IMG/VR virus record: IMGVR_UViG_3300045988_098886
DNA length: 64,000 nucleotides
Reading direction: 5' to 3' (one strand)
Source: a virus
Notes under the pieces: generated by a model
The model's database searches: none
Told to the model about the DNA's origin: nothing
The model's input: only the letters and a program-made list of their open reading frames with translations
Shown here: in pieces, positions 51,975 to 58,231 of the stretch
How the letters are laid out: each line of letters starts with the position of its first letter
Numbering within the stretch: the stretch's first letter is position 1
Made by a program: the position numbers and the translations under genes

Positions 51975-52057
51975 AGCCCTCTGTCCGATTCGAACGGACG
52001 TGAGATTTCTCTACACGCTTACAAGGCGCGTGCAATCGACCACTATGCGAAGAGGGC
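51975..52057 (-). tRNA. tRNA-Thr (UGU) with an atypical 14-nt variable region
   Basis: Acceptor GCCCUCU/AGAGGGC, anticodon arm CGCGC-CUUGUAA-GCGUG, variable UAGAGAAAUCUCAC, T arm GUCCG-UUCGAAU-CGGAC, U73. Confidence 0.75.
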
Positions 52058-52186
52058 AGAAACAGATGTGAATTTTTTAAGACGGATTCGAACCGAAATC
52101 TCCTAACACAAGGTTAGGTGTAATAACCCTTATACTATACTTCCTTGTTTGGTGGGAGTTAAAAAGTTTTGCTGTTACACATCTTT
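52058..52186 (-). ncRNA. ACAGCAA-family small RNA, member 2, with a degenerate tRNA-like core
   Basis: 5' AAAGAUGUGUA-ACAGCAA .. ACACAUC-UGUUUCU 3'. The core has a D-like arm UAGU-AUAAGGGUU-AUUA, a hairpin CCUAA-CCUUGUG-UUAGG and the T-loop sequence GGUUCGAAUCC. It abuts tRNA-Thr. Confidence 0.6.
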
Positions 52187-52206
52187 ACATAACCTTGCCA
52201 GGTTGC

Positions 52207-52276
52207 CGAGAGCGGGGGATTCGAACCCCAACTACCACAGTGACAGTGTGGCGTGCAGCCATTACACTACGCCCTC
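52207..52276 (-). tRNA. tRNA-Asp (GUC), compact (T stem apparently 4 bp)
   Basis: Acceptor GAGGGCG/CGCUCUC, anticodon arm CCACA-CUGUCAC-UGUGG, T arm GGGG-UUCGAAU-CCCC, G73. Confidence 0.75.
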
Positions 52277-52428
52277 GATTGTTGGTAGATGTCAGCCGTT
52301 TCTATTCTACCATTGCGTACTACGGTGCTGACTACCGCCTAAGATTTCCATGTCCTCACGTTATCTTAGGGTGTGTATGATTATTATTGCCTAACCAATT
52401 ACTTGGCTGGGAGGATTATGCACAAGAG
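52277..52428 (-). other. structured spacer of about 150 nt between tRNA-Glu and tRNA-Asp
   Basis: Helices CCUAAGAU/AUCUUAGG and GGUAG-UCAGC../..GCUGA-CAU-CUACC. No ORF. Confidence 0.35.
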
Positions 52429-52503
52429 CACTGCCCACGGGATTCGAACCCGTATTAGCATCATCGAAAGTGATGTGTCCTAGTCCAATTAGACGAGAGC
52501 AGC
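52429..52503 (-). tRNA. tRNA-Glu (UUC)
   Basis: Acceptor GCUGCUC/GGGCAGU, anticodon arm CAUCA-CUUUCGA-UGAUG, T arm ACGGG-UUCGAAU-CCCGU, G73. Confidence 0.85.
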
Positions 52504-52633
52504 AGAAAGCGGAAGACATTTTTATACGTTGCTCTACCTGACTGAGCTAAATGAAGCAAGCTTCACTATGAGATTTGAACTCATGACCGACGGCTTACAA
52601 GGCTAGATTGTTATTGCTGTAAGTCTTCCTTTT
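52504..52633 (-). ncRNA. ACAGCAA-family small RNA, member 3, containing a circularly permuted, tetraloop-capped tRNA mimic
   Basis: 5' AAAAGGAAGACUU-ACAGCAA .. T arm AUGAG-UUCAAAU-CUCAU, AGUGAAG-CUUG-CUUCAUU (capped acceptor), UA, D arm GCUC-AGUCAGGUA-GAGC .. GUCUUCC-GCUUUCU 3'. It abuts tRNA-Glu. Confidence 0.65.
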
Positions 52634-52644
52634 ATAAACTTAAC

Positions 52645-53010
52645 CTATTTTTCTTTTGGCTTAAAAATGAATCTGGCAGGATAGCTTTCACCAAGACCTG
52701 GCTTGTCATATTCAACTTCCCAACCATTTTTACGATATTCATCTTCTACATCTAACCATTTGTTTTCTAAGATGATTTGACTAGTCATACTATCGAGAGG
52801 ACAAACGGTAAGAATTTCTTTAATAACTTCACCTTGCAATATTATAGTGCCATAAGCATCATAATTCTTTGCAAGAAGATTGTTAAACGCCTGATACACA
52901 AAATCAGGAATGGACGCGAGTTTATGTTCTTTAGCATCCTTTGGAGTAAATATTTTCATATTCTTTATTTTTAAGTAGTAATCTTTATTAATCCCAAAAC
53001 CAAGCTTCAC
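52645..53010 (-). CDS. hypothetical protein (121 aa)
   Basis: ORF track. Confidence 0.6.
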   Translation of the reverse strand: MKLGFGINKDYYLKIKNMKIFTPKDAKEHKLASIPDFVYQAFNNLLAKNYDAYGTIILQGEVIKEILTVCPLDSMTSQIILENKWLDVEDEYRKNGWEVEYDKPGLGESYPARFIFKPKEK

Positions 53011-53191
53011 GAGCCATAGCTCGTCTCATTGATATTTTGCCATCAAGAATTTTAAACCATTTCTGATGTCTGAAATGTTGGAATCTACACTTTCCATTCT
53101 TTCCTCCACAAACACGATAAGTCCACCGTCTTCCATGAGACCGTTTACCTATGTATTTAGGTGCAATTTTCCATTTCTTTCCGTTACTCAT
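52988..53191 (-). CDS. small very basic protein (67 aa)
   Basis: The ORF track gives 52988..53233, but codons 1-14 overlap tRNA-Ser. I use the ATG at 53191 (MSNGKKWKIAPKY..). Confidence 0.5.
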   Translation of the reverse strand: MSNGKKWKIAPKYIGKRSHGRRWTYRVCGGKNGKCRFQHFRHQKWFKILDGKISMRRAMAREAWFWD

Positions 53192-53206
53192 AGTTATTAA
53201 AGTTAG

Positions 53207-53297
53207 AGGAGGAAGTGGGACTCCAACCCACACACCGCTGTTACACGATTACTGGCGATTTTCAAGACCGCTGCCTTAGCATTAGGCTTATTCCTCC
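53207..53297 (-). tRNA. tRNA-Ser (UGA), class II
   Basis: Acceptor GGAGGAA/UUCCUCC, anticodon arm GCGGU-CUUGAAA-AUCGC, variable region of about 23 nt, T arm GUGGG-UUGGAGU-CCCAC. Confidence 0.8.
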
Positions 53298-53406
53298 AAG
53301 AAGACTACTCATGTAGTCTTTATTCTGCATCAACAAACATAGCCGAAAACAATGATAGAACAATCGCAAAGGCAACTGTTATTCCTATTACCTTTAATAT
53401 GGTCAG

Positions 53407-56906: not shown

Positions 56907-56980
56907 TTGCGAGAGCAGGATTCGAACCTGCGACCTCTAGCCGACGCCGACTAGCGAGCTAACCACTGCTCCATCTCGCA
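56907..56980 (-). tRNA. tRNA-like gene with no normal anticodon loop (isotype undetermined or pseudo)
   Basis: The acceptor UGCGAGA/UCUCGCA, D arm GAGC-AGUGGUUA-GCUC and T arm GCAGG-UUCGAAU-CCUGC are perfect. The anticodon arm reads CUAGU-CGGCGUCG-GCUAG: an 8-nt loop without U33, which can zip up to a 7-bp stem with a GCGU tetraloop. Confidence 0.6.
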
Positions 56981-57042
56981 TAGACACACATAGTGACCGG
57001 TATAATGTTATGCCTATATATGTAGCCTTCCGACTACACTTG

Positions 57043-57115
57043 TTGCGGAGCTGGGAATCGAACCCAGGACCCGAGCTTATGAAACTCGTGAGATACCACT
57101 TCTACGCACTCCGCA
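57043..57115 (-). tRNA. tRNA-Met (CAU) with an irregular D-arm region
   Basis: Acceptor UGCGGAG/CUCCGCA, anticodon arm CGAGU-UUCAUAA-GCUCG, T arm CUGGG-UUCGAUU-CCCAG. The D region CGUAGAAGUGGUAUCUCA does not fold into a standard 4-bp D stem. Confidence 0.65.
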
Positions 57116-57127
57116 AATATATTGTTG

Positions 57128-57550
57128 TTAAATTTCTTTTTCCTTCTGCCGAAATAGTGTGTAATGCAAATTCCTATGACAGTTTGCACATAGAACAATA
57201 CATTTTTCTAGCTCCTTCTTTAACTTATTGGGAGCATCTATTAGTTTAGAGACTTCACAATCCTTTTCTGAAGGATTAGTATGATGAAAATCTAACAGCC
57301 ACCATCTACTCTCTCCACATTCAGAGCAAATTAAATGGGATTTGTACTCATTTAAACAATCTCTGCCCGCTTGTCTATATGCCTTAGCTTTATCTTTATA
57401 GTATTGTTTATTATTTTCATAATGCTGCTTTCTATAAAGCTTTACACATTCTTTACAGTGGCATTGTAAACCATCTTTTTTAGATTTATTTAATCCGAAT
57501 TCAAATATAGGTTTTACTTGTCCGCACTTTGTACATAATTTTGTTTCCAT
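57128..57550 (-). CDS. HNH homing endonuclease
   Basis: LLDFHHTNPSEKD..IVLCANCHRNLH (HNH core) preceded by CxxC Zn-finger pairs. It is embedded in the tRNA array. Confidence 0.8.
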   Translation of the reverse strand: METKLCTKCGQVKPIFEFGLNKSKKDGLQCHCKECVKLYRKQHYENNKQYYKDKAKAYRQAGRDCLNEYKSHLICSECGESRWWLLDFHHTNPSEKDCEVSKLIDAPNKLKKELEKCIVLCANCHRNLHYTLFRQKEKEI

Positions 57551-57552
57551 AG

Positions 57553-57626
57553 TGCGAGAAAAGGGATTCGAACCCTCAACTTCCAGTTTGGAAGACTGGC
57601 ACTCTAACCATTTGAGCTACTCTCGC
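57553..57626 (-). tRNA. tRNA-Gly (UCC)
   Basis: Acceptor GCGAGAG/UUCUCGC, anticodon arm CCAGU-CUUCCAA-ACUGG, T arm GAGGG-UUCGAAU-CCCUU. Confidence 0.9.
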
Positions 57627-57694
57627 ATAAATCATACAGATTGGAAGTCAGACATGCTCAATAACCATTGACACCATACCCGCTAATTTAAAGG

Positions 57695-58009
57695 CTAACT
57701 TACCTTTTGTTTGTTATACTTTTCAATCCATTTCTTACATTTTACTTCAAGTCTTTCCTCAAATAACTTTTGGAAATCATCTCCGTAAACACTTACTCCC
57801 AAGTCTACTACATTAATAAATGTATCAACAAGTTCGTCACACAAATTGAGAGCTTCTGTTTTCTTATAATCAGATAAGCCAGTAATAATACTAACTTCTC
57901 CCATTACTTCACCACTCTCTTCTGCCAATTTGATAGCAATGTCTTGAGTTGTTCTACCATTCTTGATAGATTTGCCAACTTCAACAACGTGTTCAATTAC
58001 ATCAATCAT
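57695..58009 (-). CDS. MazG-like nucleotide pyrophosphohydrolase (all-alpha NTP-PPase)
   Basis: LAEESGEVMGEV and CDELVDTFINVVDL match the EExxE..D metal-binding helices. Confidence 0.5.
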   Translation of the reverse strand: MIDVIEHVVEVGKSIKNGRTTQDIAIKLAEESGEVMGEVSIITGLSDYKKTEALNLCDELVDTFINVVDLGVSVYGDDFQKLFEERLEVKCKKWIEKYNKQKVS

Positions 58010-58032
58010 ACTTTATTTCTTAATTGTGAGTA

Positions 58033-58063
58033 CAAAGATACTATATATTTTTGATGTTACAAA
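58033..58063 (-). promoter_or_regulatory. Bacteroidota-type promoter
   Basis: TTTG (58060-58063), 19 nt, TATCTTTG (58033-58040). It lies about 24 nt before the ATG at 58009. Confidence 0.6.
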
Positions 58064-58148
58064 ATAGTAACTGTTAATTTCTGTTAATAAATGAACTACT
58101 TTCACAAGCAATTCATTTCATGTCTAATAAAATTCTTACCTATGAGGG

Positions 58149-58231
58149 CTGAGCGGTCAGGATTCGAACCTGAGTGAGCTTTCGCTGATGGTTTTGGAGA
58201 CCATTCTCGTCGACCACTTGAGTACCGCCCA
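58149..58231 (-). tRNA. tRNA-Trp (CCA) with an atypical 14-nt variable arm
   Basis: Acceptor UGGGCGG/CCGCUCA, G73, anticodon arm AUGGU-CUCCAAA-ACCAU, variable CAGCGAAAGCUCAC (AGC-GAAA-GCU). Confidence 0.8.

Follow-up and report, generated by a model that had tools for sequence, protein, structure and literature searches.

The window analysed here, 64,000 nucleotides (nt) of DNA from the IMG/VR virus record IMGVR_UViG_3300045988_098886, carries an array of 24 tRNA genes (ARAGORN), which spans 45.4 to 61.6 kb and lies wholly on the minus strand. In bacteria, a long variable arm is limited to the tRNAs for Leu, Ser, Tyr and selenocysteine (Sec). Five of the 24 window tRNAs, with anticodons for Thr, His, Lys, Cys and Trp, are oversized for their isotype (83-87 nt as called by ARAGORN). 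These long-arm genes and their variable regions are as follows.

51975-52057, minus strand: tRNA-Thr(UGU), 83 nt, acceptor and T stems of 7 and 5 base pairs (bp; 7/5), 3-bp D stem, G1-C72, C2-G71, U73; Rfam 49.2 bits
52000-52013, minus strand: variable region of tRNA-Thr, U-AGA-GAAA-UCU-CAC, 3-bp stem with a GNRA tetraloop (Infernal, ViennaRNA)
53911-53994, minus strand: tRNA-His(GUG), encoded G-1 at 53994, C73, 3-bp D stem; Rfam 53.0 bits
53936-53949, minus strand: variable region of tRNA-His, UACAUAAGAAACGC, 14 nt, A-rich, without a Watson-Crick stem
54931-55015, minus strand: tRNA-Lys(UUU), 85 nt, A73, class-I-type 4-bp D stem; Rfam 47.9 bits
54956-54971, minus strand: variable arm of tRNA-Lys, A-GGAA-GUAA-UUCC-ACG, 4-bp stem with a GNRA tetraloop
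55161-55242, minus strand: tRNA-Cys(GCA), 82 nt, U73, 3-bp D stem; Rfam 55.2 bits
55186-55199, minus strand: variable region of tRNA-Cys, UUGAGAAAUCUGUC, a weak hairpin (GA-GAAA-UC) of two Watson-Crick pairs and a flanking U.U
58149-58231, minus strand: tRNA-Trp(CCA), 83 nt, G73, 3-bp D stem; Rfam 49.0 bits
58174-58187, minus strand: variable arm of tRNA-Trp, C-AGC-GAAA-GCU-CAC, 3-bp stem with a GNRA tetraloop

The ARAGORN boundaries (minus strand; Thr 51974-52057, His 53910-53993, Lys 54930-55015, Cys 55160-55242 and Trp 58146-58232) lie within 1-3 nt of those listed. In Infernal alignments, the extra 10-12 nt form a single insert in the variable region of all five tRNAs, at the same site as the insert of the window's tRNA-Tyr. 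Variable regions of 14-16 nt had been noticed in an earlier note made from the letters of the window, and both ARAGORN and Infernal with the Rfam tRNA model recover them, with the same strings. A 7-bp acceptor stem and a 5-bp T stem are found in all five tRNAs by Infernal and in four of the five by ARAGORN; the exception is Trp, which ARAGORN draws in the window with an 8-bp acceptor stem and a 5-bp T stem by way of an extra C(-1):G73 pair, and the orthologues of which are 7/5 in seven relatives. Each anticodon loop has 7 nt. A long D loop with a 3-bp D stem of class-II type is present in Thr, His, Trp and Cys; such D stems had also been remarked on before, and Lys, with its 4-bp stem of class-I type, falls outside that description. 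On the Rfam tRNA model the five score 47.9-55.2 bits against a gathering score of 29, below the best class-I tRNAs of the window, which reach about 70 bits.

The arms differ in how well they fold. The stem-loops first seen by eye hold for Lys (a clear hairpin) and for Trp (capped by GAAA), and Thr also forms a hairpin; that of Cys is weak and His has none (Infernal, ViennaRNA). The Thr, Trp and Lys hairpins were recovered independently in ViennaRNA predictions, that of Thr in the minimum-energy fold. Compared with shuffled controls, the fold energies of Thr, Lys and Cys have z-scores of -3.4 to -3.7, and those of His and Trp of -2.4 and -2.2, respectively. When class II is taken to mean a variable region of at least 10 nt with a stem-loop, all five tRNAs have the length and only Thr, Trp and Lys the clear hairpin. 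None has the textbook Leu, Ser, Tyr or Sec identity: the anticodon and the discriminator base (N73) are UGU and U in Thr, GUG and C in His, UUU and A in Lys, GCA and U in Cys, and CCA and G in Trp.

The same architecture recurs in other phages, and class statistics were drawn from 163 unique phage long-arm tRNAs with class-I anticodons. Their variable regions are mostly 14-16 nt long, with a stem of 3-4 bp that is most commonly preceded by 1 unpaired nt and followed by a tail of 3 nt. Phage tRNA-Tyr has nearly the same arrangement (3-bp stem, 1 nt, 3 nt), whereas phage tRNA-Ser has a stem of 5-7 bp (1 nt, 1 nt) and phage tRNA-Leu one of 4-6 bp (0 nt, 1 nt). Judged from these predicted pairings, the geometry of the arm is Tyr-like, unlike that of the Ser or Leu tRNAs of the same phages. 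A hairpin of at least 3 bp can be formed by 86.5% of the variable regions, compared with 58.5 ± 3.4% of shuffled ones, and a GNRA motif occurs in 70%, compared with 35.5 ± 3.4%; 37% of the arm loops are GNRA, mostly GAAA. The commonest arm octamer, GAGAAAUC, was found in 14 of the 163, spread over tRNAs for Cys, Asn, Trp and Thr from unrelated metagenomes. The D arm is also of class-II type: the D stem is 3 bp in 63% of long-arm tRNAs versus 20% of tRNAs whose variable loop is short, and the commonest D loop is 11 nt versus 8-9 nt. A second type of long loop, 12-14 nt, unstructured and A-rich (UAUNCAAACAYC or ACAUAAGAAACGC), is common to several isotypes and phages. It is found in many phage Lys and Thr tRNAs, among them the Thr tRNA of phage phiM12 (locus L031, 4001-4084) and the Lys tRNAs of L394, L401, L405, L407 and L409; a Thr tRNA of L064 has a similar loop, and the His loop of the window (53936-53949) resembles it.

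Bacterial tRNA-Tyr is the closest known scaffold. It shares with the window tRNAs a variable region of 13-16 nt built from about 1 nt, a 3-bp stem and a tail of about 3 nt, and with the long-arm class a 3-bp D stem, an 11-nt D loop and 7/5 acceptor and T stems. It differs in its GUA anticodon and A73, the anticodons and discriminators of the window tRNAs being those of Thr, His, Lys, Cys and Trp. The loops differ as well: those of phage tRNA-Tyr are U-rich or UUCG (GNRA in 1 of 38), whereas the long-arm class favours GNRA.

Determinants of cognate identity have been described as G1-C72 and C2-G71 for Thr, G-1 and C73 for His, A73 for Lys, U73 for Cys and G73 for Trp (see also PMC9976931). Cognate elongator determinants (anticodon, N73 and acceptor pairs) are present in all five window tRNAs; the fit already pointed out for U73 in Cys, G73 in Trp and G-1:C73 in His was confirmed, and it extends to A73 in Lys and U73 in Thr. 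It also extends to the class. Among long phage tRNAs, U73 is found in 39 of 40 for Cys, G73 in 39 of 47 for Trp, C73 in 9 of 9 for His, A73 in 8 of 8 for Lys, U73 in 17 of 19 for Thr and G73 in 8 of 10 for Asn. In Trp, G73 is accompanied by A1-U72 or G1.U72. Across the set of 163, N73 and the 1:72 pair equal those of tRNAs with the same anticodon and a short variable loop.

Scoring with isotype models had been suggested as a check. As a stand-in for the tRNAscan isotype models, we masked the anticodon of phage tRNAs, cut out their variable region and built isotype profile hidden Markov models (HMMs) from what remained. As a control, 16 of 18 window tRNAs were correctly assigned. With these body-only models, Thr, Lys and Cys score best on their own isotype, which comes a near-tied second for His (28.1 bits versus 28.7 for Glu) and Trp (24.4 bits versus 26.4 for Ser). 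The five reach 2-27 bits on the models for Ser, Leu and Tyr, whereas the window's own Ser and Leu tRNAs reach 36-50 bits and its Tyr tRNA 28.7 bits, each on its own model. The five are also the phage's only tRNAs for their codon families, which account for 193 per 1,000 codons in the open reading frames (ORFs) of the window, and the standard genetic code is used in these ORFs. Since the five families make up 19% of phage codons, mischarging would carry a very high cost. The tRNAs thus seem to be marked for the cognate amino acid, with mischarging unlikely, and from known identity rules we infer charging by the cognate synthetases.

Known unusual tRNAs resemble the window genes in part. The allo-tRNAs and selC* tRNAs (PMC5389517) also combine a long arm with an anticodon other than Leu, Ser or Tyr and come from metagenomes and phage tRNA clusters, and the selC* tRNA-Cys has Cys identity (U73, GCA) with a long arm. 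They differ in a 12-bp acceptor branch divided 8/4 or 9/3 and in D arms that are Sec-like, and the allo-tRNAs in having Ser identity (a long arm with G73 or U73), whereas the window tRNAs are 7/5 with an identity that agrees with the anticodon. No 8/4 or 9/3 branch is seen in the window tRNAs, their discriminators follow the anticodon, their arm stems are 3-4 bp compared with 5-7 bp in phage tRNA-Ser, and the window Cys is 7/5 with a 3-bp D stem; selB* and cysS* genes are not among the window ORFs scanned. The nev-tRNAs (PMC3333845) likewise place a class-I anticodon (Gly CCC, Ile UAU) on a class-II architecture; they are eukaryotic (nematode), have Leu identity and are reported to be leucylated in vitro. 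The window tRNAs show no such conflict of Leu or Ser identity with the anticodon, either in N73 and the 1:72 pair or in the body-only HMMs.

The earlier note treated the long arm as a feature of the window and missed its wide occurrence in phages. A pattern for the Thr arm matches 18 IMG/VR contigs, including phages from other metagenomes in which Thr alone is long. A generic pattern (Trp or Cys anticodon loop, a spacer of 20-28 nt and GGTTYGAATCC), with matches confirmed by ARAGORN, hit at least 119 stretches in IMG/VR; among the matches listed, 101 of 118 loci hold a genuine long tRNA (53 Trp and 48 Cys), from dozens of metagenomes. The corresponding Lys pattern gave a genuine long tRNA-Lys in 101 of 116 loci and the His pattern a genuine long tRNA-His in 17 of 114. 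The flanks of the Trp and Cys loci contain further long arms in Asn, Met (including initiator-like tRNAs starting CGCGG), Ile(UAU), Val, Asp, Pro, Arg, Glu and Gln tRNAs. No long Ala or Gly tRNA was found in the flanks of the listed Trp and Cys loci; one long Ala and two long Gly tRNAs were found in the loci of the Lys scan.

Cultured phages have such tRNAs too: Caulobacter phage CcrColossus (Trp, 86 nt, GGC-GCAA-GCC; Cys, 87 nt; Met, 87 nt), Rhodobacter phage RcXuper (Lys(CUU), 88 nt, UGC-GAAA-GCA; Lys(UUU)), Pseudomonas phage Psa21 (Asn, 88-90 nt), Sinorhizobium phages phiM12, phiM7, phiM19 and phiN3 (Thr, 84 nt) and Pseudomonas phage vB_PpS_SYP (Thr, 83 nt, unannotated). The arms of CcrColossus, RcXuper, Psa21 and phiM12 are like those of the window in their hairpins (GGC-GCAA-GCC, UGC-GAAA-GCA, CGC-GGAA-GCG) and their 3' tails of 3-4 nt; the genes were deposited in GenBank plainly as 'tRNA-Trp' and so on, and the hosts are Proteobacteria. 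The long-arm design is common in phages and not a peculiarity of the window.

The same Trp/Cys pattern was run on 185,579 bacterial and archaeal genomes. Among the matches listed, 14 of 120 are real tRNAs, and all 14 lie within tRNA-gene clusters, which are dense and phage-like, or on short contigs of metagenome-assembled genomes; one sequence from such a genome is identical to a phage sequence in IMG/VR. The viral and cellular scans can be compared by precision only (86% versus 12% among the matches listed), not by absolute counts. Among the genomes with such clusters are Chryseobacterium isolates (L155, L159, L164, L172, L187, L188 and L224), which have 4-16 tRNA genes in the 8 kb fetched; one of these genes is a tRNA-Cys of 83 nt whose variable loop has 11 nt.

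Three further variants were recorded in these loci. Long-arm tRNA-Met(CAU) genes lie at L023 530-616, L510 6778-6859, L277 14809-14889 and L273 2811-2897 (CcrColossus); the Met tRNAs of L023 and several other IMG/VR loci start with CGCGG, like the bacterial initiator tRNA, and that of L277 with CGTGG, so some phages may put a variable arm on an initiator tRNA. The tRNA-Ile(UAU) of L038, L044, L061 and L068 is 88-94 nt long, with a variable arm of 23-24 nt and a 7-nt loop conserved as C(A/U)GAUUA across different metagenomes. In IMG/VR contigs L042, L076, L077, L079, L082, L089 and L113, tRNA-Trp(CCA) genes of 85-92 nt start with G(G/U)AGGUGCGGUG; judged by eye, they combine a long variable arm with a short D loop and a D stem of unusual length, and look Sec- or allo-tRNA-like, not Tyr-like.

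The history of the arms was followed in relatives. Cultured phages gave no megablast match to the region, and this phage is known from metagenomes alone. Its nearest cultured relative by the Ro60-like protein that adjoins the array (59764-61485, minus strand; described below) is Leptolyngbya phage Lbo-JY46, with 41% identity, in which the sole tRNA in the 27 kb fetched around the homologue is a tRNA-Leu. Closer are 11 IMG/VR contigs with 86-100% identity to this protein. Long tRNAs were found in these 11 contigs, the Thr tRNA being identical or nearly so, and the arms are retained in about 20 related contigs overall. Comparison with homologous tRNAs in related phages, another check that had been proposed, shows that the long arms are conserved and that the Thr and Trp stems covary. 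In two related contigs and many more distant phages the Thr arm is replaced by UCC-GCAA-GGA or UCC-GUAA-GGA. In an alignment of ten Thr sequences, all three arm pairs change on both sides, 100% of cells are paired and the loop is GNRA in nine of ten; the remaining four helices show compensatory changes or are invariant. This covariation of the Thr arm is essentially one evolutionary event. The Trp stem covaries independently, as AGC/GCU in the window and L510, UGC/GCA in L511 and UAGC/GGCU in L277.

Syntenic arrays were fetched from relatives and ranked by the identity of their Ro60-like protein to that of the window. L277 (51%) has a long arm on Trp, plus an 81-nt Met tRNA with an 11-nt variable region; L510 (68%) has one on Trp, plus an 82-nt Met tRNA with a 12-nt variable region; L511 (73%) has long arms on Trp and Thr; and the window clade (86-100%) on Trp, Thr, Cys, Lys and His. 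In L512 (55% by BLASTP, 58% by alignment) the stretch fetched contains no long-arm tRNA and no Trp gene. Trp is long in all Trp-bearing relatives, down to 51% identity. The window Cys gene is the orthologue of Cys genes with a 6-nt variable loop in L510, L511 and L277, with 8 nt inserted in that loop, and the window Lys gene is the orthologue of class-I Lys genes in L510 and L511, with about 11 nt inserted. The Cys and Lys orthologues of L510 and L511 have the same acceptor stems and are 79-84% identical outside the gap. In Thr and His, the long gene appears to have taken the place of an earlier one, not to have arisen by insertion. By this ranking, long arms accumulate stepwise towards the window clade (from one to two to five), and descent is settled for the window's own lineage only, through its syntenic relatives. 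The near-identity of the Thr and Cys inserts had been read as a sign of common descent. That reading is weak: since GAGAAAUC recurs across isotypes and samples, in unrelated metagenomes, and Cys gained its 8 nt in place, the resemblance is better seen as a recurrent motif and is no proof of descent within the genome.

Conservation, covariation and enrichment over shuffled sequences together indicate that the arms are under selection. The five genes are very probably cognate decoders with a selected arm, that is, working phage tRNA genes on a class-II scaffold of the tRNA-Tyr type that retain the identity marks of Thr, His, Lys, Cys and Trp. Host cognate synthetases would charge them and normal codons would be read, and the compact arm, usually 3-4 bp with a GNRA cap, would be a selected structural module of a widespread phage design.

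What the arm may be for is suggested by its distribution and by its neighbours. We believe that it confers a phage-specific advantage, because a hairpin has been gained repeatedly and directionally at the same site, is conserved and is nearly absent from cellular genomes. The window also encodes the following enzymes.

2911-3696, minus strand: Thg1-family tRNA-His guanylyltransferase (Pfam, 109.5 bits)
3698-4612, minus strand: polynucleotide kinase-phosphatase, Pnkp (library scans of window ORFs)
5280-6653, minus strand: RNA ligase (PHROG, 122 bits)
22255-23058, minus strand: ADP-ribosylglycohydrolase (library scans of window ORFs)

Pnkp together with RNA ligase is the classic counter of phage T4 to the anticodon nuclease PrrC, and this repair kit suggests a phage lineage that faces tRNA-damaging enzymes. 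The arm sets the phage tRNAs structurally apart from host class-I isoacceptors, and tRNA-targeting nucleases, whether host defence toxins or phage shut-off enzymes, might bind or cut armed tRNAs less well while synthetases, EF-Tu and the ribosome continue to accept them. We tentatively propose, from the genomic context and the repeated gain, such a protective or self-marking role against these nucleases. The earlier note had offered nuclease protection and a mark for a phage factor as possibilities, and both would fit this context. A GNRA-capped arm that has evolved repeatedly on Trp, Cys, Lys, Thr, His, Asn, initiator Met and other tRNAs might act as 'armour' or a 'badge' that blocks or mis-positions immune nucleases or the phage's own shut-off enzymes. 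To the combined reading (cognate decoders, a selected arm and a protective role) we assign a probability of roughly 40%.

Several points weigh against this reading, and in particular against its protective part. Other phage tRNAs are known to escape through changes in the anticodon loop, and no part played by the variable arm is on record. The published escape of phage tRNAs from nucleases relies on supply or over-expression (PMC11555353): the tRNA-Tyr of T5 and SP15, which counters a retron, resembles the present proposal in that phage isoacceptors take over from host tRNAs, or out-compete them, during nuclease attack and in a similar context of tRNA repair, and differs in its mechanism, arm protection being something that we infer here. 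A natural class-II tRNA, tRNA-Ser, is reported to be the preferred substrate of the MenT3 toxin, and human SLFN11 accommodates a type II tRNA. The His and Cys arms have no convincing stem, so one shared structural mechanism is not guaranteed. Among close relatives, the long tRNA-Lys is replaced in L005 by a 75-nt one of ordinary form, and L008 adds to its long genes ordinary second copies for Trp, Cys, Lys and His; the arm is therefore dispensable or interchangeable. Finally, conservation of the arm could result from co-adaptation with a class-II D arm, without an added function.

This last point leads to an alternative that is possible, if doubtful, in which the arm is a structural legacy. 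Insertions and class-II bodies would arise easily, synthetases would tolerate them, and the arm would be locked in by the D arm with no function of its own. The co-occurrence of arms with class-II-type D arms fits this view, as do the best BLAST matches of long Trp and Cys tRNAs in IMG/VR, which are phage tRNA-Ser genes, the swapping of long and short versions in L005 and L008, and the diversity of the arm sequences, some of them unstructured. It accounts less well for the stepwise gain of one, two and five arms, in which two independent in-place insertions each made a GNRA-type hairpin at the same site, or for the enrichment of hairpins and GNRA motifs over shuffles and the recurrence of GAGAAAUC across isotypes and metagenomes. 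The near-absence of the trait from cellular genomes (among the matches listed) is also hard to square with neutral tolerance.

It is unlikely that the arm serves instead as a handle for a phage factor, marking the tRNAs for repair by Pnkp, RNA ligase and Thg1, for modification or for the Ro60-like and Y-RNA-like machinery. GNRA tetraloops are classic docking motifs, GAGAAAUC recurs, and the repair genes and the Ro60 homologue share the window with the arms. Against such a handle, long arms occur in very different phages (among them the T4-like phiM12, CcrColossus and Psa21), which may not share these factors, their sequences vary widely and some are stemless, and just 5 of the 24 window tRNAs have one.

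A role in folding or stability, in which a GNRA-capped helix would stabilize the L-shaped core of phage tRNAs that are made fast and perhaps under-modified, seems rather improbable. The arms are short stable hairpins with GNRA loops or C-G closing pairs, and Thr, Lys and Cys fold well below their shuffles, His and Trp less so. However, most tRNAs of the same phage lack an arm, and the His and Cys arms are unstructured or weak. Phages of Caulobacter, Rhodobacter and Pseudomonas are G+C-rich; long arms occur in them as well as in the array described here (37% G+C), without any tie to base composition.

Mischarging by SerRS or LeuRS, which the earlier note had raised, is very improbable, as is its extension to TyrRS; the long arm would direct charging and the Thr, His, Lys, Cys and Trp codons would be partly reassigned. 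SerRS uses G2:C71 as a determinant, which is missing from Thr and Cys (both C2-G71), and TyrRS requires a GUA anticodon, which none of the five has. The geometry of the arm is of the Tyr type and differs from that of Ser and Leu, discriminators and 1:72 pairs are cognate in the window and across the 163 examples, and the bodies score mostly below the window's genuine Ser, Leu and Tyr tRNAs on those models. To these come the position of the five as sole phage tRNAs for 19% of codons and the standard code of the ORFs. In favour of mischarging, the Trp body scores marginally better on the Ser model than on its own, and the window Trp has G73, as do most phage tRNA-Ser, whereas the other four long tRNAs do not; precedents exist in the nev-tRNAs (PMC3333845) and the allo-tRNAs (PMC5389517). 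A further idea, that a single mutation separates the long-arm anticodons from those of Leu, Ser or Tyr, was set aside, since nearly all anticodons qualify and the criterion does not discriminate.

That the genes are non-functional (pseudogenes, introns or prediction artefacts) is the least tenable view, and although their Rfam scores of 48-55 bits lie below those of the window's best class-I tRNAs, introns and mis-set boundaries, which re-folding might have revealed, are ruled out by an insert that sits in the variable region and not at position 37/38 (Infernal), each tRNA folds as a complete cloverleaf in which the stems are 7/5 and the tertiary positions conserved, the helices of the Thr alignment show compensatory changes or invariance, and the genes are retained across many contigs.

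The textbook restriction to Leu, Ser, Tyr and Sec fails for phage tRNAs, in which at least seven other isotypes are built on a class-II scaffold that carries cognate marks. Full-text searches of largely open-access literature and a 2020 review of non-canonical tRNAs turned up no account of phage tRNAs that combine 7/5 stems, a long arm and cognate class-I identity, and the design is apparently undescribed. Current annotation passes over such genes without comment or calls them 'tRNA-OTHER' or pseudogenes, and isotype-specific models may mis-score them. If they are charged as marked, a variable arm is no obstacle to the synthetases for Trp, Cys, Lys, Thr, His, Asn and Met, a tolerance that would be useful for engineering tagged or orthogonal tRNAs. 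Protection by the arm, if true, would be a general structural counter-defence, distinct from over-supply of tRNA and from changes in the anticodon loop. Repeated gain beside tRNA-repair genes makes this a concrete and cheap hypothesis, since cultured phage-host pairs with such tRNAs exist.

The array is headed by the gene of the Ro60-like protein and interspersed with RNA elements, 11 in all.

59764-61485, minus strand: structural homologue of Ro60, 573 amino acids, Pfam DUF2828 and vWA
59718-59627, minus strand: RNA element 1
58472-58416, minus strand: RNA element 2
58292-58238, minus strand: RNA element 3
56117-55975, minus strand: RNA element 4
55557-55416, minus strand: RNA element 5
55306-55250, minus strand: RNA element 6
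55138-55074, minus strand: RNA element 7
54588-54524, minus strand: RNA element 8
52629-52511, minus strand: RNA element 9
52184-52064, minus strand: RNA element 10
47486-47399, minus strand: RNA element 11

An AlphaFold2 model of the 573-residue protein (predicted local distance difference test (pLDDT) 81, predicted template modelling score (pTM) 0.77) matches the Ro60/Rsr structures 2i91, 1yvr, 2nvo and 9nep over their full length in a fold search (E-values 7e-8 to 1e-5). Searching the PDB by sequence returned noise only, so the relationship is visible by fold search alone. On the strength of this model, the protein is a Ro60 homologue. The 11 elements lie between tRNA genes and have two 7-nt terminal arms that pair with each other and differ in sequence from copy to copy; in all 11, an invariant (A)CAGCAA follows the 5' arm. 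Nine of them terminate 6-13 nt upstream of a tRNA gene, and three enclose a permuted tRNA-like module consisting of a T arm, an acceptor-like hairpin and a D arm. One of these three matches Rfam YrlA at 52524-52592 (34.8 bits versus a gathering score of 69), in the tRNA-like domain only. The elements are conserved in relatives, with 8-14 per locus on the gene strand versus 0-3 on the opposite strand. The features that define a Ro60/YrlA system, a Ro60 protein with TROVE and vWA domains and a tRNA-like Y RNA nearby, are thus present, as judged by the model and a sub-threshold YrlA match. The elements may be Y-RNA-like RNAs that are co-transcribed with the tRNAs and freed by RNase P. YrlA RNAs beside Ro60 genes are already known in bacteria and phages (PMC4201824); what appears to be new is the presence of many Y-RNA-like copies, interleaved with tRNA genes and sharing a leader motif.

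Other features of the window touch on the array or its surroundings. A tRNA at 56906-56980 (minus strand; Rfam 56.9 bits) has an 8-nt anticodon loop, CGGCGUCG, for which ARAGORN gives the anticodon 'gcgt'; it is otherwise found only in L002 and is a candidate for quadruplet or frameshift decoding, or else an unusual tRNA for Arg. Also within the array are a gene for a DnaJ-domain protein (49820-50776, minus strand) and a small Cys-rich ORF (57128-57550, minus strand) that has an HNH-like motif by eye (LDFHH...N...CANCH) and, as its sole Pfam match, a weak one to RNA_pol_Rpb1_1. A homing-endonuclease-like gene encoding 378 amino acids (16067-17203, minus strand) lies among the replication genes.

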